The notes: generated by a model from the sequence alone, not told the origin. 64,000 nt of DNA from an uncultured delta proteobacterium (GCA_963767925.1 CAVYGB010000002.1:1248001-1312000), one strand, 5' to 3'; shown: positions 5,309 through 35,638, counted from the first letter of the stretch. Made by a program: numbers and translations.

Positions 5309-6736
5309 TCAGTTCGAAGCTTGGAAGACGAAGGGGAAGGAGACCTCGACCGCGCCACCCTTCGGTGCGGGGAAGCGCCAGCGGCCGACGAGGCTGCTTG
5401 ATGCAGCTCGCGACCTCGGAGTCGCCCATGGTGTCGGACTCGATGTCGACGCCCTGGACGGTGCCGGCCGCGGTGATGGTCCAGTGGAGCGACGATCTTG
5501 CCGGTCAGGCTTGGGGTTGCGCTTGAGGCGCCCGCTCGTAGCAGCCCTTGATGGCGCCCATGCGCGCCCGCACCTCCCTGGCCACGACGCCAGGGTCGAG
5601 CTCGCCGTCGACGGCGGGGGCCTCGCTCTTGACGACGGCGTTGACCCGTCGCTCCGGCCCCACGTTGCCGGTGCTGCCGCCGGCGATCTCCCCGCTGCCG
5701 CGCAGGCCGGTGATGCTCGCCACCTTGCCCGAGCCGCCGGTGCCCGTCTTGATCCCGCGCAGCGAGGCGTCGCCGGTGGCGACGGTGAGGCCGCCGACAC
5801 CCTGGAAGGCCTTCTCCTGGTCGCGATCGACGTCGCCCTTGCCGAGCACGTCGGCGATCGAGCCCTCGCCGTCGGCCTTGGCCCCCAGCAGCTTGAGGAT
5901 GCCGGTGTTCTTGACCGCCTCGGCCAGCCGGGCCCGCCGCTCGTCGGCCTGCCGCTGCTTCTCGGCGGCGGCCTGGGCCTTCTCCTCCTCGGTCGGCTCG
6001 CGCCGCTTGCCCTCGGACTTGGGCTGCTCCTTCTTCTCCGCCGCCTCTTCCTTCTTTCTTCTTCGACCTTCTCCTCGGCGACGACCTGGGGCGGTGGCTC
6101 GGGCTTCTTCACCACCATCTGCACGAAGCGGTCGGGGATCTCCTCGACGTCCAGCTCGCGGGGCCAGTCGACGTTGCGCAGGTAGACCACCATCGCCAGG
6201 TGGGCCACGAACGAGGTCACCGCGATGCGTGGTGAAGAACCAGTCGAGGTTGCTGGCGAAGCGTGCCCGCGCACCGAGGCGGGCAGCTGTGGCCGCGGCT
6301 GGGGCGGCGGCGGCGTGACGAACTGGAAGAGGACCGTGACGTCGCCGAAGGTGATCTTCCCGCGCGAGCGCTCGTCGAGCAGCATGACCCAGGCGGGGCC
6401 CTGCTTGCGGATCTTCTGGCTCTGCTTGAGCTGGGCCAGCGAGATGACCTCGTTGCCCACGGCGATGCGGGCGTCCATGGCGTCGGCGAAGTGGGCCACG
6501 TAACCCCGGGGCGTGGCGGTGAACAGCACCCACTGGCGCGGCAAGGCCTCGGACGGGACGACGAACATGTTCTTCGCCGACTGCCCGATGGTGATGTTCT
6601 CGCGCTGGCGGACCAGCCGCTCCTCGACGATGCGTCCACCCTGGACGATGCCGATGCGGAGGATCTTCGGCTTCTGGATGGTCGTGGGGGTACCGTACGC
6701 TGCTGCTCGCGCCGCCTGGCTGGCCATGGGGGACAT
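5309..6736 (-). CDS. gltG: GltG/PglI/NfsG-like protein (FHA-like N-terminus, TM, coiled coil, AgmX/PglI TonB-C-like C-terminus); several frameshifts
   Basis: KILRIGIVQGGRIVEERL N-terminus; TM FVAHLAMVVYL; IPDRFVQMVV; GILKLLG; C-terminal RMGAIKGCYER ... WRFPAPKGGAVEVSFPFVF; follows gltF. Confidence 0.8.
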   Translation of the reverse strand: MSPMASQAARAAAYGTPTTIQKPKILRIGIVQGGRIVEERLVRQRENITIGQSAKNMFVVPSEALPRQWVLFTATPRGYVAHFADAMDARIAVGNEVISLAQLKQSQKIRKQGPAWVMLLDERSRGKITFGDVTVLFQFVTPPPPQPRPQLPASVRGHASPATSTGSSPRIAVTSFVAHLAMVVYLRNVDWPRELDVEEIPDRFVQMVVKKPEPPPQVVAEEKVEEERRKRRRRRRSSPSPRASGASRPRRRRPRPPPRSSGRPTSGGPGWPRRSRTPASSSCWGPRPTARARSPTCSARATSIATRRRPSRVSAASPSPPATPRCAGSRRAPAARARWRASPACAAAGRSPAAAPATWGRSDGSTPSSRARPPPSTASSTLASWPGRCGRAWAPSRAATSGRLKRNPKPDRQDRRSTGPSPRPAPSRASTSSPTPWATPRSRAASSSLVGRWRFPAPKGGAVEVSFPFVFQASN

Positions 6737-26409: not shown

Positions 26410-27669
26410 ATGATCACGAAGACCCGCGCCGGCGCCGTGAACCTGGCGGTCCTGGTGGCCGCCCTCGGCTACTTCGTCGACATCTACGACCTCATCCTGT
26501 TCAGCGTGGTGCGGGTCAAGAGCCTGCAGGGGCTGGGGGTCGAGGGCGGGGCCCTGCTCGAAAAGGGCCTGTTCATCCTCAACATGCAGATGCTCGGCAT
26601 GCTGGTGGGCGGGATCTTGTGGGGCGTGCTGGGCGACCGGCGGGGGCGGCTCTCGGTGCTGTTCGGGTCGATCATCCTCTATTCGCTGGCCAACCTGGCC
26701 AACGGCATCCCGGACAAGCTGGCGGTCTGGACCGGCGGGGGGCTCGACGCCATCCAGATGTACGCGCTGATCCGCTTCGTGGCCGGGGTGGGCCTGGCGG
26801 GGGAGCTGGGCGCCGGGATCACCCTGGTCAGCGAGTCGATGCGCAAGGAGACGCGCGGCTACGGGACCACCATCGTCGCCACCGTGGGGATCTGCGGGGG
26901 CCTGGTGGCGGTGTTCGTGGGCAAGACCGCCGACTGGCGGGTGGCCTATTTCATCGGCGGCGGGATGGGGCTGGCCCTGCTGGTGCTGCGCCTCGGGGTG
27001 ATGGAGTCGGGGCTGTTCCAGAGCGTGCGGGCCACGGCCGTGTCGCGCGGGAACTTCCTGCACCTGTTCCGCAGCGCCGCCCGGGCCCGCCGCTACCTCT
27101 CGGTGATCCTGGTCGGCGTCCCAATCTGGTACGTGGTGGGGATCCTCATCACCTTCGCGCCCGAGCTGGGGCGGGCGATGGGCATGACCCGGCTGCCCAC
27201 CGGGCCCGACGCAGTCGTCTCGGTGTATGCCGGCCTGGTGGTCGGAGACCTGGCCAGCGGCCTGCTGAGCCAGGTGCTGCGCACGCGCAAGAAGGTGCTG
27301 GGCGGGTTCATCGTCATGACCGCCCTGTTCGTCGCCTTGTATTTCACCCTGGCCTCCCGCTCGCTGCCCATCTTCTACGGGGTGTGCGTCGGGCTGGGCC
27401 TGGCCATCGGCTACTGGGCGGTCTTCGTCAGCATGGCCAGCGAGCAGTTCGGCACCAACCTGCGGGCCACCGTCACCACCACCGCCCCCAACTTCGTGCG
27501 CGGCGCCGTGGTGGCGGTGACCTTCGCCTTCGAGCACCTGCGCGGGTCCCTCGGCGTCACCGGCGCCGCCCTGGCGGTGGGCGCCGCCACCCTGGTGCTG
27601 GCGCTGATCGCCCTGGCCAGCCTGCCCGAGACCTTCGGCCGCGACCTCGACTTCGTCGAGCCGGACTGA
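26410..27669 (+). CDS. MFS transporter
   Basis: About 12 hydrophobic segments; ALGYFVDIYDL, motif A GVLGDRRGR, RFVAGVGLAGE, SEQFGTNLRAT, LPETFGRDL. Confidence 0.93.
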   Translation: MITKTRAGAVNLAVLVAALGYFVDIYDLILFSVVRVKSLQGLGVEGGALLEKGLFILNMQMLGMLVGGILWGVLGDRRGRLSVLFGSIILYSLANLANGIPDKLAVWTGGGLDAIQMYALIRFVAGVGLAGELGAGITLVSESMRKETRGYGTTIVATVGICGGLVAVFVGKTADWRVAYFIGGGMGLALLVLRLGVMESGLFQSVRATAVSRGNFLHLFRSAARARRYLSVILVGVPIWYVVGILITFAPELGRAMGMTRLPTGPDAVVSVYAGLVVGDLASGLLSQVLRTRKKVLGGFIVMTALFVALYFTLASRSLPIFYGVCVGLGLAIGYWAVFVSMASEQFGTNLRATVTTTAPNFVRGAVVAVTFAFEHLRGSLGVTGAALAVGAATLVLALIALASLPETFGRDLDFVEPD

Positions 27670-27687
27670 CCGGCGCCCTCAGACGCC
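27616..27687. repeat. 72-bp direct repeat, left copy (island boundary)
   Basis: GCCAGCCTGCCCGAGACC...GGACTGACCGGCGCCCTCAGACGCC is identical to 30243-30314. Confidence 0.97.
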
Positions 27688-27751
27688 AAACGTCCCTCGA
27701 TGGGGGCGAGAGCTCGGACGAGGAGGACTACCTCGGTCCGCAGGCCGGCGT

Positions 27752-28402
27752 TCACGGAACTACAACGGGAGGTCGCCAGTCGCCCTCGGTCCCCACATTC
27801 ATTCCGAGCTCGACGTCTCCTTCGTACGCCGGAAGTGGGCGGCCAACTTGGCTGTCGAGGGAGAGCTCCGGACCCAGCACTTTCATGAAGCAATCGTGTA
27901 CCTCCTCGGGTACCCCACCGCCATCTTTCATACTGAGCACGGGGTCGGAGAGGACGGCCCCCTCAGGCCGCATTCGCGCCTTCCAAACCACTTTCATTTG
28001 GAGGGGCGATTCGTTGACCGAGGAGCATTGCTGCCGGGTTCCGGCCGCAACGCGGACGATCAGCGATTGGTGGAGGTTGTCCACGCTACGATGACGGAAG
28101 CGGAGCTTCTGATAGGGAGTCATCGTGCGCGGGATTGCATCCACCGAGGGCGCCGGGGGGAGCGCCTGTGCCTGCGCCAGCGCGCGCAAAGCCTGGGCGA
28201 CCTGGGGAGGCCCGATCGTCGCACCCGGGTACGAGCCCGGACCCCCCGCCTCAAAGGTGCTCGGCCCGCCAACGGTTGTTCTCGCGACGCCCGCTTCCGG
28301 CCTTCCTTGGGACAGCTGGAAGGCGACCGCACCGGAGACCAAGAATACGGTTGCCACGGCGATCCGAAACGTCGAGCGGCGCGAAGGAGTCGAAGTTCGC
28401 AC
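27752..28402 (-). CDS. Membrane-anchored hypothetical protein with a two-Cys C-terminal domain
   Basis: N-terminal TM (IAVATVFLVSGAVAF), Pro/Gly linker, C-terminal QQC...MKVVWK...PEGAV...VHDCFMKVL; third gene of the island operon. Confidence 0.65.
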   Translation of the reverse strand: MRTSTPSRRSTFRIAVATVFLVSGAVAFQLSQGRPEAGVARTTVGGPSTFEAGGPGSYPGATIGPPQVAQALRALAQAQALPPAPSVDAIPRTMTPYQKLRFRHRSVDNLHQSLIVRVAAGTRQQCSSVNESPLQMKVVWKARMRPEGAVLSDPVLSMKDGGGVPEEVHDCFMKVLGPELSLDSQVGRPLPAYEGDVELGMNVGTEGDWRPPVVVP

Positions 28403-28413
28403 GTGTCGGCTCC

Positions 28414-29148
28414 CTATTCTGGAAGGTTAACCTTGCCGAGCGTCTTCGATAGCTGGGCCTGCCCCGAGCGTACTTTTGCGAAGAACGAACGGCGAGCGGC
28501 CCGGTTCTGGTGCTGAAAGCTCGCGGGATCGCTGACGTCGTACTTGTCCGCCAACCGCCTCTCCTCGACCGCGTACCCCTCCTTCGGAGGGTATACGAGG
28601 TACACACTCGGTTTCCCGTCTACGCTCGTCGTTTTGAGCGTGGATGCGACCCGGATCGCGGCAAGGGCGGCGTTCACCTTTCGGTCCAGATCGCCCCCCA
28701 GCGTGGGCCAGGTGACAAGGCAAGTGCGCGTTCGGCACTCGACCTTTAAATCTCGCGCCTCCGGCACCAGAACTAGAAGATCGGCGAGACCGTCGGCGAG
28801 AGCACCCGTCTCCATCGCAGAGGCCCAGGGCCCATTGCGCGGTTCTCGGTCGAACAACTCGCTGGCGCTCGCCCCGAGCCTCATGAGAACGCGAGGATCG
28901 TAACCCGGCTTGACCGGATCCTTCTCCATGTCGGCGGGGAGCTCCGCCAGGCGAGGGCCGCAATCCCGGATGGGTCCATGTAGCCCACCAGTCTGTGGCC
29001 CGGTCGCGCTGCCGGCGGCCAGTGGAGCTGACCGCGGGAGTACCTCGGACCTATCACTAGTTAACCGTCGCGCCAACATCCCGCCGGCCGTGCCAGTAAT
29101 CGCGGCCAAAACCAGCCATGCCGAAGTGGAACGCCAGCTTGAGCTCAT
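28414..29148 (-). CDS. Membrane-anchored hypothetical protein (F-x-x-EPR-x3-WA ... VECRTRTC)
   Basis: ATG 29148 overlaps the peptide stop (ATGA); TM WLVLAAITGTAGGML; FDREPRNGPWASAME and KVECRTRTCLV motifs. Confidence 0.75.
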   Translation of the reverse strand: MSSSWRSTSAWLVLAAITGTAGGMLARRLTSDRSEVLPRSAPLAAGSATGPQTGGLHGPIRDCGPRLAELPADMEKDPVKPGYDPRVLMRLGASASELFDREPRNGPWASAMETGALADGLADLLVLVPEARDLKVECRTRTCLVTWPTLGGDLDRKVNAALAAIRVASTLKTTSVDGKPSVYLVYPPKEGYAVEERRLADKYDVSDPASFQHQNRAARRSFFAKVRSGQAQLSKTLGKVNLPE

Positions 29149-29417
29149 GAGCAGCACACAATTTGACAGGTGCTGTCGCAGTGACAACGGAAATACCCTT
29201 CTGGCTCGCCCTCGGGGCCACACTCCGGATATTCAGTCTCACTGGTAAAGCAGTCGCAGCCGCTGCCGCCACAACTGCTCACGCAGTCGTGATCCGAACA
29301 CATATCGCCACCAGAGTCCCCTGAGCATGCCAGGGTCTCGGGAGTAGACCCTAGGTAAACCCCAGTTCCAGCGGCGATCGCGATACCCAGCGGCAGGAGA
29401 AGTTTCGAAAGCATCAT
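29145..29417 (-). CDS. Secreted cysteine-rich acidic peptide (90 aa; 12 Cys in a predicted 60-aa mature part)
   Basis: GGAGG SD, then MMLSKLLLPLGIAIAAGTGVYLGSTPETLA|CSGDSGGDMCSDHDCVSSCGGSGCDCFTSETEYPECGPEGEPEGYFRCHCDSTCQIVCCS*; translationally coupled to the next gene. Confidence 0.8.
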   Translation of the reverse strand: MMLSKLLLPLGIAIAAGTGVYLGSTPETLACSGDSGGDMCSDHDCVSSCGGSGCDCFTSETEYPECGPEGEPEGYFRCHCDSTCQIVCCS

Positions 29418-29606
29418 GGTGTGACCTCCGTCTTTGGATCGCGATTCCGACTGCGGTCCGCGGTCCAGGTTCGAGAGAGACCATCGTCGTCGCTTGCTGA
29501 TCTCACAATCCTCCAAAGCGCTGTCAGCCGGACGCCGTCAGCTTGCTGGGGTGCTACCACCACTAAGTACCTCACCAGTATTTTACGTCGTCATGCTTCA
29601 TTTCCT

Positions 29607-29635
29607 TTGACGTGCGAATGTCTCGACGAGACAAT
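29607..29635 (+). promoter_or_regulatory. Putative sigma70 promoter with overlapping palindromic operator
   Basis: TTGACG (29607-29612), 17 nt, GACAAT (29630-29635); perfect inverted repeat TGTCTCG-A-CGAGACA at 29619-29633. Confidence 0.5.
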
Positions 29636-29661
29636 AATTTACGTCATGCGAAACCTTCGCC

Positions 29662-30024
29662 GTGCCGCCCCTGATGCAAGCGTCCCAACGTTCACCCAGG
29701 GGCAAACGACTCGAACCGACCTCGCCCACGGACGCCACATGCCCGCCCCACTTTGCATCGGCGCTGACCGTAGAAAACGCGGCCGTGGAGATGGGCCGGC
29801 GCTATGGGTTGAGCAAGAGACAAATTGAGATCGTGGCTCGGATCGGATTGGGCCTTCGAATCAAGAGCATCGCCGTGGAGCTCGACCTGGACCGCCGGAC
29901 GGTCACAGAACAGGTCTTCCGCGCCTGCGCCCGAACCGGCTCTAAAGATCGCGAGGCTCTTGCCGGTCGGCTGGTCGAGATTCTGCTGGACCTGGCAAAC
30001 CGAATGCGCGGCAACGATTTGTAG
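29662..30024 (+). CDS. Stand-alone LuxR/GerE-type HTH regulator (start uncertain)
   Basis: YGLSKRQIEIVARIGLGLRIKSIAVELDLDRRTVTEQVFRACARTG fits the LuxR HTH pattern; no receiver domain. Confidence 0.75.
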   Translation: MPPLMQASQRSPRGKRLEPTSPTDATCPPHFASALTVENAAVEMGRRYGLSKRQIEIVARIGLGLRIKSIAVELDLDRRTVTEQVFRACARTGSKDREALAGRLVEILLDLANRMRGNDL

Positions 30025-30044
30025 GGGCTCACATCTGGCCGGGG

Positions 30045-30296
30045 ATCACCTGGTAGCATTGTTCGTGAGCGAGACGGAGGACTGGTGGGTGGCTTGCTTC
30101 AGTCGGCGGTGGGATTGGGGCTGGCCCCTGCTGGTGCTCCGGCCAAGAGGTGAAGCCGGGGCTGTTCCAGGAGTGCACACCACGACGGTGTTGCGGGGAC
30201 CTTCCTGCGCCTTTCCACAGCGCCGCTCGGGCCCCGGCGACCGCCAGCCTGCCCGAGACCTTCGGCCGCGACCTCGACTTCGTCGAGCCGGACTGA
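30045..30296 (+). pseudogene. Decayed, internally deleted copy of the 3' half of the MFS gene
   Basis: 30048-30240 aligns by eye to MFS 26901-27095 (e.g. CTGGCCCCTGCTGGTGCT, GGGGCTGTTCCAG) with substitutions and indels, then jumps to the identical 3' end. Confidence 0.8.
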
Positions 30297-30314
30297 CCGG
30301 CGCCCTCAGACGCC
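30243..30314. repeat. 72-bp direct repeat, right copy (contains the cysK stop codon)
   Basis: Identical to 27616-27687. Confidence 0.97.
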
Positions 30315-31262
30315 CTTGCGCACCAGCTCGCTGAACAGCGGGGTCGACAGGTAGCGCTCGCCGCTGTCGGGCAGGACGGTGACGATGTAGCGCCCTTCGT
30401 TCTCCGGGCGGGCGGCCAGGGCCAGGGCCGCCGCCAGCGCGGCTCCGCTGGAGATGCCGCACAGGATGCCCTCCTCGCGGGCCAGGCGGCGGGCGCAGGT
30501 GAAGGTCTCGTCTTCGGTCACGGTGAGGACCTCGTCGATCACGCGGCGGTCGAGGATGGGGGGCACGAAGCCGGCCCCGATGCCCTGGATGAGGTGGTTG
30601 CCCACCGGGCCGCCGGAGAGCACCGCCGCCTTGGCCGGCTCGACCGCGACGATGCGCACGCCCGGCTTGCGGGCCTTGAGCACGTCGCCCACCCCGGTGA
30701 TGGTGCCGCCGGTGCCGACCCCCGCCACGAAGATGTCGACGGCGCCGCCGCTGTCGCGCCAGATCTCCTCGGCGGTCGTGCGGCGGTGCACCTCGGGGTT
30801 GGCCGGGTTGGTGAACTGCCCCAGGGTGACCGAGCCCGGGATCTCCTCGCGCAGCTTGTGGGCCCGGGCCACCGCGTCCCGCATCAGGGTCCCGGGGGTC
30901 GTGACCACCTCGGCCCCGAAGTAGCGCAGCAGCGCCGCCCGCTCGGTCGACATGCGCTCGGGCATGGTGACGATCAGCCGGTAGCCGCGGGCGGCCGCCA
31001 CGAACGCCAGGGCGATGCCGGTGTTGCCCGAGGAGGGCTCGATGATGGTCGCGCCCGGCAGCAGCTCGCCCCGGCGCTCGGCCTCGGTGATCATGGCGAT
31101 GCCGATGCGGTCCTTGACGCTGCCGCAGGGGTTGCGCGCCTCGAGCTTGCCGAACAGCCGCGCCCGCAGGCCGCGCCCCACCCGCGACAGCTCGACCAGC
31201 GGCGTCCCTCCGGCCGTGTCGACCACGCTGCTCAGCGTTTTTCCCGATTGGTTGTCGTCCAT
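30306..31262 (-). CDS. cysK: Cysteine synthase A
   Basis: [16 protein letters not shown] (PLP Lys), [47 protein letters not shown]. Confidence 0.96.
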
Positions 31263-33239: not shown

Positions 33240-34301
33240 TTGCGCCCCCGCTCTCGCGGCTCGCGTGCGCCAGAAGGGTCAGATGCAGAGTCGGAGTCGG
33301 GGGGGCCAGCGTCCGGATCGAGCGCGCCCCCCTCACCCCATCCCTCTCCCCGCTCCCGCGGGGCGAGGGGGTCAGATCCAGATCCAGATCCAGGGGCGGA
33401 GGTGGAGCCGGTGGTCGGCTTGGGCGCTCCCGGTTTGCCCTCTCCCGCGGGAGCGGGAGAGGGGAAGGGTGAGGGCGGGGCGTAGAGGGCGTTGAGCGCC
33501 TCGAGCAGCAGGGGGCGGCGCGCGGGCATCGGGGTGCCGGCCGCGCGCCAGCGCAGCCGGGCCTCGCCGGCCGCCGCCGTCCAGCGATCCGAGATCCGCC
33601 GGCAGCAGCGCCTCGAGCCCCTCGCGCACCAGGGCGGCCAGCGCGGGCGCGGTGCCGCCGGTCGAGACCGCGATGGTGAGGGGACCGCGGCGGGCCACGC
33701 TACCGGCGAAGGCCGAGGCTGCCGGGGGATCGTCGGCGGCGTTCACGAAGATCCGCCGCGGCAGCGCCGCTGCCAGCACCGCCCGGTTGACCGCCGGCGT
33801 GGCCGCCGCCACCGCGAACCAGGCGCCGTCGAGGTCCTCGGGGAGGAAGCCCCGCTCGATCACCGTGGCGCCCGCCGCCCGCAGCTCGGGCCGCACCTGG
33901 GGCGCCACGATGGTGACCTCCGCCCCCGCCGCCACCAGGGTGGCGTGTTTGGCCAGCGCCACCGTCCCGCCGCCCACCAGCACCACCTTGCGCCCCTCCA
34001 GCCGCAGAAACGTGGGGAACAGCGGCTCGGTCTGCGCCGCGCCTGCCGGCAGCGGCCCGGACGCCTCGCCACCCCCGGATGCGCCCGCCGGACTGGCATC
34101 GTTCGACGGCACGGGCGCCGGCAGCGGCCCCGCCGCCTCGCCACCGGCCTCGAACGGGCCCGCCGGACTGGCATCGTTCGACGGCACGGGCGCCGGCAGC
34201 GGCCCCGCCGCCTCGCCACCGGCCTCGAACGGGCCCACCGGACCGGCGTCGTTCGACGGCGCGGGCGCAGGCGAGAGGGGAGACCGGCGCTGAGGCGTCA
34301 T
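33236..34301 (-). CDS. Precorrin-2 dehydrogenase/sirohydrochlorin ferrochelatase (CysG-B/SirC-Met8-like); frameshift near 33590; low-complexity extensions at both ends
   Basis: [46 protein letters not shown]-coupled to proA and cobA. Confidence 0.85.
33329..33475. repeat. REP-like inverted pair inside the cysG-like coding tail
   Basis: CCCCTCACCCCATCCCTCTCCCCGC...GGGGCGAGGGG (33329-33370) and inverted CCCTCTCCCGC...GGGAGAGGGGAAGGGTGAGGG (33438-33475), related to the MITE arms. Confidence 0.7.
34045..34268. repeat. 75-bp coding tandem repeat (about 3 copies)
   Basis: Units start at 34083 and 34158; encode [25 protein letters not shown] on the minus strand. Confidence 0.9.
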
Positions 34302-35638
34302 GGCAGGTCGCGGTGGGTGAAGGGGCGGCCGCCGGGGCCGTAGTCGGCGGTGGCCTGGCCGTCGCCGCTGAGCAGCCAGCGGTAGGTGAGCAGGCCCTCG
34401 ACCCCGACCGGGCCGCGGGCGTGCAGCTTGTCGGTGCTGATCCCCACCTCGGCCCCCAGACCGAAGCGGTAACCGTCGGAGAACCGGGTGCTGGCGTTGT
34501 GGAACACGCAGGCCCCGTCGACCTCGTCGAGGAAGCGGCGGGCCGACCCGGCCTCCTCGGTGACGATGGCGTCGGTGTGGCGCGAGCCATGGCGGGCGAT
34601 GTGCGCGAGCGCCCCGTCTAGCCCCGCGACCTTCTTGATCGACAGGACGAGCTCCCCGTATTCGGTGTCCCAGTCGGCGTCGGTCGCCGCCAGCAACCCC
34701 GGGTGGCGGTTGCGGGTCTCGGCGCAGGCCCGCAGCTCCACCCCCCGGGCGGCCAGCGCCGCCACGCAGGCGTCGAGGGCCGGGCCGGCCGCCTCGGTCC
34801 ACAGCAGCGTCTCGACCGCGTTGCAAGCCGCCGGGTAGCTGCACTTGGCGTCGACCGCGATGCGGGCGGCCTTCTCCGGGTGGGCGCCGTCGTGCAGGTA
34901 GACGTGGCAGATGCCGTCGGCGTGGGCCATCACCGGGATCTTGCTGGCCCCCCGGACGTGGCGGATGAACCCCGACGAGCCGCGGGCGATGATCATGTCG
35001 ACCACGTCGTGCAGCCCCAGCAGGGCGTCGACCTCGGCCCGCTCCTCGAGCAGCACCAGCGCGCCCGGATCGACGCCCGCCGCCGCCAGCACCTCCTGGG
35101 CCACCCGGTGCAGCGCCCGGTTGCTGGCCCGCGCCTCGCGCCCGCCCTTGAGCACGGCCGCGTTCCCGCTCTTCCAGGCCAGCCCGGTGATCTGCACCAT
35201 CGCGTCCGGCCGGGCCTCGAACACGACCCCCAGCACGCCCAGCGGGCAGGACACCCGCTCGAGCACCAGAGCGCGGTCGAGCTCCCGGTGGGTGAGGCGC
35301 TGCCCCACGAGATCCGGCATGGCGGCGAGCTGGCGCAGGCCATCGATCACGCCGGCGAGCTTCTTGCCGTCGAGCCCCAGCCGGTTGACCAGCGCGGGGG
35401 CCAGCGTCCCCGCGGCCTCCTCCTGCCGCGCGCGCGCCAGGTCCTCGGCGTTGGCCGCCAGCACCACCTCCTGCACGGCCGGTCGCGCCAGCGCCGCCGC
35501 CAGGCCCTCGAGCAACCGCGCACGGACGTTACCCCCGGCGGGCCCACCGCCCGGGCCCGACCCGCCGGCGCGCAGCGCCCGCGCCGCCGTCCGGGCCGCG
35601 ATCACCTGATCGCGAAGGTCTGACCCGCTCGCGCCCAT
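34298..35638 (-). CDS. proA: Gamma-glutamyl phosphate reductase
   Basis: [86 protein letters not shown]. Confidence 0.96.

Follow-up and report, generated by a model that had tools for sequence, protein, structure and literature searches.

A small integrase-less cassette encoding a cysteine-rich peptide and two membrane-anchored partners, one member of a module family in a class of probable Myxococcota

Bacteriocins that depend on Sec or act in the periplasm can be co-transcribed with the gene of a membrane-anchored immunity protein. Among such proteins, the colicin M immunity protein Cmi is a bitopic, periplasm-facing protector against a bacteriocin that acts in the periplasm. As for mobile DNA, islands flanked by att sites but devoid of an integrase are known as cis-mobilisable elements derived from integrative elements. 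Myxobacteria provide two further points of comparison: the polymorphic toxin-immunity pairs SitA/SitI of Myxococcus, where SitA is delivered by outer membrane exchange (accessible text of PMC5562445), and the cis-defensins, i.e. xanthusin-1 and classes I-V, which are disulfide-stabilised small peptides bearing a signal peptide (accessible text of PMC11561630). The present study deals with a locus at positions 27688-30242 of a 64,000-nucleotide (nt) stretch of DNA from an uncultured delta proteobacterium (GCA_963767925.1 CAVYGB010000002.1:1248001-1312000), called the window throughout. An original prediction, made by a model from the sequence without database searches, had singled it out as a self-contained island with a secreted peptide, two membrane-anchored partners and a divergent LuxR regulator. 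Our results indicated that the island is an integrase-less cassette with a module that belongs to a family present in this class of probable Myxococcota. It is like bacteriocin/immunity cassettes in gene logic, yet it is a member of no known system to which it was compared. No description of the three genes, or of the protein family of the first partner (gene A, see below), was found in open full texts, subscription journals falling outside the scope of this search.

The open reading frame (ORF) map and the sequence itself agreed with the predicted three-gene operon on the minus strand, in the order peptide gene, gene A and gene B. The peptide gene (29145-29417, recognised by the ORF map, by reading of the sequence and by its orthologues) encodes a precursor of 90 amino acids (aa) with 12 Cys. 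A GGAGG ribosome-binding site, read from the sequence, is located 7 nt upstream of its ATG (29425-29429, minus strand). Residues 1-30 make up a leader, judged by inspection and a crude script, which comprises a Lys-containing N-terminus, a hydrophobic stretch of 17 residues and the end TLA|C; this n-h-c layout, ending in TLA|C, is kept in the peptide orthologues. The 60-aa remainder contains the 12 Cys (among them CDC, CHC and a terminal CC) and has a net charge of -11. Its stop codon overlaps the start of gene A (ATGA, 29145-29148), and gene B begins with a GTG 11 nt past the stop of gene A. The predicted traits of the peptide gene (precursor and leader lengths, ribosome-binding site, acidic 12-Cys core, two CxC motifs, terminal CC and ATGA coupling to the next gene) were thus all read at the expected positions, and the two proteins that follow were each found to carry one N-terminal membrane helix in AlphaFold2 (AF2) models, in keeping with the membrane anchoring proposed for both. 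The products also proved undescribed, as had been expected: the peptide, A and B had no match in Pfam, NCBIfam, PADLOC or PHROGs, and A matched no PDB sequence either, a PDB profile search giving chance-level rows only. In the Protein Atlas, the best score of the peptide was only 0.80 and offered no lead. A lipoprotein nature of the peptide was considered and rejected, TLAC and most of the corresponding sister sites falling by eye outside the usual lipobox rule.

Orthologues of the operon were found in metagenomes. The closest peptide (P0164) displayed 72% identity and the closest B protein (P0163) 70%. A more distant contig (L057) carried an orthologous operon, including the ATGA coupling, with identities of 45% for the peptide (45-50% for the peptide alignments as a whole), 48% for A and 32% for B. 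All 12 Cys (12/12) were invariant across three peptide orthologues. Since diverged orthologues retained key residues and gene order in an independent contig, all three genes are under selection. A narrower, alignment-based search for related loci returned none in genome contigs or viral contigs; in metagenome contigs it gave two, of which L057 was a true locus and L058 a false one.

The module itself recurred with other peptides. Eight further relatives of A were detected in the host genome by single-sequence search, and 11 matches in all by profile. Four of these own-genome loci were preceded by a small, leader-bearing and Cys-rich ORF that differed from one locus to the next: L013, L016 and L018 combined peptide, A and a B-like gene, while in L019 peptide and A were followed by a gene of the DsbA family. 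Two others (L014 and L017) consisted of A and B without peptide and may be compared, by analogy, to orphan immunity genes. The association was further assessed by counting upstream ORFs of 40-110 or 40-140 aa on the same strand which had 6 Cys or more and began with a hydrophobic leader. Within a 700-nt window, they occurred in 9 of 30 A loci, the control being 38 of 3000 random windows from the same genome; within a 1-kb window, the figures were 16 of 47 loci for A and 26 of 3000 for random windows. The latter 47 loci include three loci without upstream DNA and one (L027) whose match is probably an off-frame artefact. Cys-rich, leader-bearing ORFs are therefore enriched approximately 30-fold upstream of A-family genes, which is what the original prediction had proposed to look for, namely homologues of the 28414-29148 protein beside variable Cys-rich small ORFs. 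In more distant A families the order was peptide, B-like lipoprotein, A and B.

Peptides of different modules could not be aligned beyond the leader and scattered Cys. Among 13 module peptides, the mature part ranged from 34 to 65 aa, Cys counts from 6 to 12 (even in 12 of the 13) and net charge from -11 to +2. In being leader-bearing small peptides with presumed disulfides encoded in Myxococcota genomes, they recall the cis-defensins of PMC11561630 (accessible text). Yet the cis-defensin pattern given there, CX(2,18)CX(3)CX(2,12)CX(4,17)CXC, fits none of the 13 (0/13), the window's peptide included. Module peptides further differ by their higher Cys content (up to 12) and by their partner genes, none being reported for cis-defensins in the accessible text of that article. 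Two side observations concern module composition and peptide age. In the congener, a B-like gene lies on both sides of the A gene of locus L024 (G001:C390:1-3124), which suggests tandem modules. The peptides of L061, L052 and L070 (genomes G430 and G025, from two families of the class) share the C-terminal pattern C-A/K-x-C-...-N-x-x-C-x-S-S-...-G-x-C-x-x-x-G-x-C, which would make some peptide families older than that of the window.

A metallothionein-like peptide acting as periplasmic metal buffer or chaperone, with A and B as handling proteins, was the other function put forward in the original prediction. The mature core is indeed rich in Cys, His (2), Asp and Glu, besides its net charge of -11. 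Such a function now appears very unlikely, because Sec export would lead the peptide into an oxidising compartment, and because the even Cys counts (12/13) and the linkage of A to DsbA (see below) point to disulfides. Sister peptides share neither spacing nor composition beyond their Cys, no metal transporter, sensor or resistance gene is present in or beside the island, and mobile islands of fast turnover would be odd carriers for metal homeostasis.

The boundaries of the cassette were given by a repeat search of the window. The insert measures 2555 nt (27688-30242) and is immediately bounded on either side by a perfect 72-nt direct repeat, located at 27616-27687 (left) and 30243-30314 (right); the two copies are 100% identical and spaced by 2627 nt. 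The limits of the insert are precisely those that had been proposed for the island. Insert and one repeat together form a unit of 2627 bp. The repeat consists of the 3' end of a major facilitator superfamily (MFS) transporter gene (last 54 nt including the stop), a 9-nt spacer and the last codons and stop of a convergent cysK gene. Both are flanking host genes: the former occupies 26410-27669 on the plus strand (Pfam MFS_1, E 2.4e-18) and the latter, a cysteine synthase-type gene with a PALP domain, 30306-31262 on the minus strand (Pfam PALP, 1.4e-77). They adjoin each other in two relatives of the host, a congener (G001:C519) and a genome of the same family (G012:C541), where the site is thus empty; the left repeat copy was aligned with the empty site of the congener. 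Base composition was equally telling. GC content at third codon positions (GC3) was 0.61-0.73 in the four island ORFs and 0.96-0.98 in flanking genes (0.98 for the MFS gene), and overall GC was 0.59-0.66 within the island against 0.70-0.74 outside. The island is therefore richer in A/T than its flanks, as originally noticed, and the proposed horizontal acquisition is borne out by repeats, empty sites and foreign composition alike. It is a true, recent and compositionally foreign insertion.

The insert also contains a decayed fragment of the MFS gene (30049-30234, plus strand), 80-84% identical to 26901-27088 with indels, which abuts the right repeat. Together with the perfect repeat, this piece indicates that the cassette or its ancestor once left the MFS-cysK locus with part of the gene. 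The layout is what one crossover would leave if a circular element bearing an old end of the target gene recombined with the chromosome, and the crossover could have been either site-specific or plainly homologous (Campbell-type). The element resembles integrase-less att-flanked islands in that it is inserted at a 3' gene end, which its direct repeat restores, carries a degraded remnant of the target gene, has a foreign composition and is matched by an empty site in relatives. Contrary to such islands, it is only 2.6 kb long and lacks integrase, excisionase and transfer genes. It represents a clean case of a tiny integrase-less element caught soon after insertion.

The gene content of the insert is limited. 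According to the ORF map, Pfam and NCBIfam, its four ORFs and the MFS fragment include no integrase or recombinase, the island holds no enzyme, transporter, lysis or secretion gene, and no further gene of at least 40 aa with a family match was found beyond those described here. The predicted absence of integrase, transporter and enzymes modifying ribosomally synthesised and post-translationally modified peptides (RiPPs) was thereby upheld. With no modifying enzyme in the island, and A and B matching no known maturase, the locus does not qualify as a RiPP cluster. No Rfam family was detected in 27400-30500, no terminator-like site was found, and no direct repeats comparable to the 72-nt pair surround the other modules of the host genome.

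A layout bounded by long repeats may raise the suspicion of a mis-join at the 72-nt repeat, i.e. of an empty site assembled together with a separate 2627-bp circle or another strain, or else of dead DNA with unexpressed ORFs. The host genome is a draft (13 contigs, 83.8% complete, 5% contamination), and an empty site accompanied by a circular form would give the same repeat-bounded layout in an assembly graph. Yet its contigs are of megabase size, which makes a mis-join unlikely and suggests that reads spanned the 2.6-kb insert. All three proteins moreover have diverged orthologues with their key residues kept, in a gene order that recurs in a metagenome contig, and even as a circle the cassette would count as a genuine mobile element. 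We therefore regard an assembly artefact or dead DNA as extremely improbable. In two soil-metagenome runs of one study, contigs matched 27896-28219 and 29908-30181 without differences and covered no junction. As an aside, a database record of the identical peptide comes from a contig of 2615 nt. Its length equals that of the 2555-nt insert plus 30 nt at each end, which is the size of the assembly product expected at k=31 for a segment bounded by the 72-nt repeat. The peptide gene was seemingly left uncalled on the 2.26-Mb contig.

Gene A (28414-29148, minus strand, by ORF map) encodes a bitopic protein of 244 aa, modelled by AF2 with a predicted local distance difference test (pLDDT) of 88.4. 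In the model, a transmembrane (TM) helix (residues 5-30) is joined by a disordered linker to a periplasmic alpha/beta domain (approximately 70-244). The two motifs that had been pointed out, EPR-x3-WA and VECRTRTC, are present, the first as EPRNGPWA. Across 90 distant members, Y83, E102, E113, C138 and C143 were invariant and R104, W108 and R219 nearly so, the C-x4-C pair being placed in a predicted beta-hairpin. The family is large: an exhaustive profile search of clusters at 50% identity returned 1120 representatives at E<=1e-3 and 479 at E<=1e-10. Ten representatives were looked up and all ten were unnamed or called 'hypothetical protein'. Foldseek with the A model gave nothing at E<=0.001. 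In VIA-align, the best match was the C-terminal domain of PulL (Z 4.8), followed by PilO (4.2) and EpsL (4.0); no chain reached Z 5, all lying under the tool's caution line of Z 8. These neighbours are ferredoxin-like periplasmic domains from bitopic platform proteins of type II secretion systems and type IV pili (GspL/M, PilO). A has no convincing relative by structure. A predicted complex between the mature peptide and the periplasmic domain of A scored 0.02, which weighs neither way.

Gene B (27752-28402, minus strand; ORF map and family alignments) encodes a bitopic protein of 216 aa, with an AF2 pLDDT of 76.5. An N-terminal helix and a low-confidence linker precede a C-terminal domain at approximately 95-205 (blocks of pLDDT 84-97), and a Cys pair (C126 and C171) is conserved. 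In VIA-align, the C-terminal domain ranked TolA C-terminal domains first (Z 6.7, 6.7, 5.4 and 5.3, with 87-94 residues aligned), and TonB reached Z 5.0, all these values being under the caution line of 8. The top Foldseek match was the C-terminal domain of HasB (E 0.051), and that of FusB was also among the matches. Modest as these Z values are, the matches form a consistent set, and the order of anchor, linker and C-terminal domain agrees with them; the predicted fold would be like that of TolA/TonB C-termini. At the sequence level, six B members had no match in Pfam or NCBIfam at E<=5, and an hhalign comparison with own-genome myxo_SS_tail domains (NF033768) was not significant (probability 7.8%, E 0.0044). 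B shares with TolA/TonB proteins a membrane helix, a long flexible periplasmic linker and an alpha/beta C-terminal domain of about 100 aa. It differs from them by its conserved Cys pair, by the absence of a family-level sequence match and by a membrane helix without His. As a His motif in this helix couples TonB and TolA to their motors, B lacks the motor-coupling motif of these proteins.

Domain fusions provided further clues. Protein P0145 consists of an A domain (14-151) fused to a B domain (176-312, E 7e-19), which implies that A and B act together. A long protein of the host genome (L086:1831-6432; G000:C2 at approximately 216.8-221.4 kb, outside the window, with a likely start at the methionine of MSVDNP...) combines Sigma70_r2 and r4 of the extracytoplasmic function (ECF) type, a membrane helix, three DsbA/thioredoxin domains and a C-terminal A domain. 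To our knowledge, no membrane-tethered sigma factor with a periplasmic oxidoreductase array has been described. The congener possesses two DsbA-A proteins (L043 and L047), one of them after the end of sigma region 4 and a membrane helix. Another own-genome locus (L087:6331-6963) displayed a DsbA piece joined to A, and a double-DsbA gene lies approximately 2 kb from the L016 module. Finally, P0143 carries Sigma70_r4 (2.9e-9), a TM segment, an A domain at 152-349 and a C-terminal extension that looks B-like by eye, without a significant match. These fusions and neighbours link the A domain to thiol-disulfide chemistry and also, for some of the proteins, to an output at the level of transcription.

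The DsbA partners invite a role in dedicated folding or holding, in which A, with B or DsbA, would be a client-specific periplasmic adaptor to oxidative folding or a membrane holder for a peptide with many disulfides that is hard to fold, the peptide itself having another role, such as that of an inhibitor or of a constituent of the envelope. Besides the fusions in L086, L087, L043 and L047, the DsbA gene adjoining A in L019 and the double-DsbA gene near L016, the conserved core of A with its invariant Y, E, E and C-x4-C pair and the translational coupling of peptide and A are in line with such a role. General Dsb systems are normally sufficient, however, and neither the peptide-less A and B pairs nor the sigma-factor fusions would be explained. 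The Cys pair of A, in its predicted beta-hairpin, also looks structural rather than like a CxxC redox site. We consider this role rather improbable.

The sigma-factor fusions would fit another arrangement, where the peptide is a ligand, A and B form a membrane-anchored sensor, and output passes through a regulator of sigma region 4 or LuxR type, diversification then leading to pherotypes or kin labels. Membrane-tethered ECF sigma proteins indeed have A as their periplasmic portion (P0143, L086:1831-6432 and the partial orthologues in the congener), and a gene with resemblance to sigma region 4 or GerE diverges from the operon. The C-termini of TolA and TonB, the fold class of B, also take part in trans-envelope signalling in known systems. 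Yet A and B of the island have only about 10-13 cytoplasmic residues, which leaves no route for an inward signal, and no kinase, protease or anti-sigma domain was found in the island with Pfam or NCBIfam. The absence of modules common to congeners fits conflict better, kin labelling being still compatible with it. Peptide sensing of this kind is thus a minority possibility, to be taken seriously all the same.

The divergent gene itself (29662-30024, plus strand) encodes a small helix-turn-helix (HTH) protein of GerE/LuxR or sigma-70 region-4 type, according to Pfam, NCBIfam and PHROG. It counts 120 aa from a GTG at 29662, or 77 aa from an alternative ATG at 29791. Its Pfam scores were 19.5 bits for GerE, under the cut-off of 23.5 and covering profile positions 3-35 of 57, and 17.8 bits for Sigma70_r4_2. 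NCBIfam matches (PedR and LuxR-family C-termini, E 9e-6 to 1e-2) were far below family cut-offs, and the PHROG match was 'sigma factor' (1.5e-5). The divergent HTH gene had been called a LuxR gene; the ORF is there, while the LuxR/GerE assignment stays below the Pfam cut-off. No paralogue of it was found beside any other module of the host genome, which also speaks against its part in signal output. As a component of the module, the HTH gene is not conserved, and the notion of a self-contained unit including a LuxR regulator is accordingly not supported. The divergent intergenic region (29418-29661) is described from consensus matches only, among them a sigma-70-like promoter at 29607-29635 on the plus strand. 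An A/T-rich motif ending in TTTACGTC occurs twice in it, 56 nt apart (29576-29589 and 29632-29645), with TTGACGT/ACGTCA half-sites between the two TTTACGTC copies. This repeated TTTACGTC motif may be a candidate operator for the neighbouring HTH protein.

The distribution of the A family among reference genomes was patchy. It was recorded in 11 of 61 reference genomes at the family level and in 19 of 401 at the class level, concentrated in two families; the 4 occurrences in a phylum-wide sample of 301 genomes all belonged to the same class. In the Protein Atlas, the nearest clusters of A were unnamed and commonest in Myxococcota (0.91), and the host genome displayed 21 matches to the myxobacterial domain NF033768 (myxo_SS_tail), from which the host phylum is probably Myxococcota. 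Only two A proteins of the host had orthologues in the congener: a stand-alone core A (62% identity) and the sigma-DsbA-A protein (54%). Module-type A proteins reached 28-40% identity at best, without any orthologue, and module repertoires were wholly different between the two congeners. Peptide-bearing modules moreover sit in low-GC patches, contrary to the core A gene. The modules thus constitute an accessory layer of fast turnover on top of an older domain. Core A (L015/L044, L035, L025, L026 and L027) is single-copy, of normal GC, without peptide and B, and vertically inherited; it is syntenic in at least 3 genera, where it adjoins a gene of the short-chain dehydrogenase/reductase (SDR) type. 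It may reflect the ancestral role of the A domain. Its conserved neighbours (the SDR gene and a further ORF) gave no functional hint.

Two observations were made elsewhere in the window. A myxo_SS_tail (NF033768) match above cut-off is located at 5367-5597 on the minus strand (G000:C2:1253367-1253597), within an open frame that contains one in-frame TGA. In the ORF listing, an ORF at 33372-34844, also on the minus strand, displays a near-perfect threefold repeat of about 25 aa before a Rossmann-like segment.

As to the function of the cassette, handling of disulfide-rich peptides in the periplasm by the A domain would be the common denominator of all contexts, judging from gene neighbourhood and fusions. 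For unfused cassettes of fast turnover such as that of the window, we tentatively favour, with slightly less than even confidence, a disulfide-rich peptide that is secreted or stays in the periplasm, together with cognate partners that bind it or confer immunity, all serving interbacterial conflict or kin discrimination. Sec would carry the precursor out of the cytoplasm; cleavage after TLA and folding in the periplasm would then yield a compact mini-protein with as many as six disulfides. Owing to overlapping or adjacent start and stop codons, synthesis of A and B would keep pace with that of the peptide, and both partners would be anchored in the inner membrane, their globular domains facing the periplasm. 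There the A domain would be the conserved module that recognises or handles disulfide-rich peptides, to which B would add a binding domain that is TolA/TonB-C-like. Where A and B are unfused and devoid of a cytoplasmic output domain, they would most likely capture the co-encoded peptide and protect the producer (immunity or holding). The targets of the peptide would be other cells, whether for antagonism or for kin discrimination. In this scheme, export, disulfide formation, association of the peptide with A and B and any toxic or protective effect are inferred.

Several facts weigh against the peptide being a toxin or kin label held by its immunity partners. Fusion of A to ECF sigma factors and the existence of a vertically inherited, stand-alone and peptide-less A gene both point to sensing over immunity. 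Under the criteria used, 31 of 47 A loci had no Cys-rich ORF. The peptides are anionic to neutral (-11 to +2), unlike most membrane-active antimicrobial peptides, and neither the ORF map nor Pfam disclosed anything in the island that would take the peptide across the outer membrane. The invariant polar residues of A in 90 distant members fit a conserved biochemical or structural role rather than fast-evolving immunity, and fold matches were modest (Z 6.7 for B and 4.8 for A, both under the caution line of 8).

Comparison with established conflict systems gave a mixed picture. Colicin M/Cmi-type systems join a small or modular toxin gene closely to the gene of a protector that is anchored in the inner membrane, faces the periplasm and has a disulfide, as the cassette would do; they are likewise variable, island-borne and patchy, with orphan protector genes. 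Yet there is no sequence or clear fold relation, and the cassette encodes two partners of new families and a tiny acidic peptide; module peptides have 6-12 Cys, and no release, lysis or import-domain genes accompany the trio. The SitA/SitI pairs, as presented in the accessible text of PMC5562445, are polymorphic, multi-copy and horizontally moving myxobacterial cassettes that separate kin from non-kin, in which respect the modules resemble them. Contrary to these pairs, the peptides are of 34-65 aa, that of the window departs from the usual lipobox rule, and no sequence relation was observed.

A broader, admittedly speculative and rather unlikely possibility is that the A domain is an unrecognised periplasmic receptor for disulfide-rich mini-proteins which, with a TolA/TonB-like partner, underlies widespread recognition of self and foreign peptides in myxobacteria. 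It would then occur in three wirings: mobile cassettes of peptide and receptor (self/non-self or toxin/antidote), DsbA fusions remodelling disulfides, and sigma fusions leading to transcription. If true, Gram-negatives would possess an equivalent of the Cys-rich peptide-receptor pairs of plants and animals.

Small secreted proteins rich in disulfides are among the main means by which eukaryotes fight and communicate; in Gram-negatives they are barely charted, in part because gene callers miss them. This work joins hypervariable Cys-rich peptides, an unannotated A family (1120 clusters at 50% identity) and a TolA/TonB-like B family. Inspection of the DNA upstream of A genes provides a search rule for more such peptides, as well as a testable handle on a family of unknown function. 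If the peptides turn out to be antibacterial or kin labels, they would represent new compact and stable bioactive scaffolds from soil predators.

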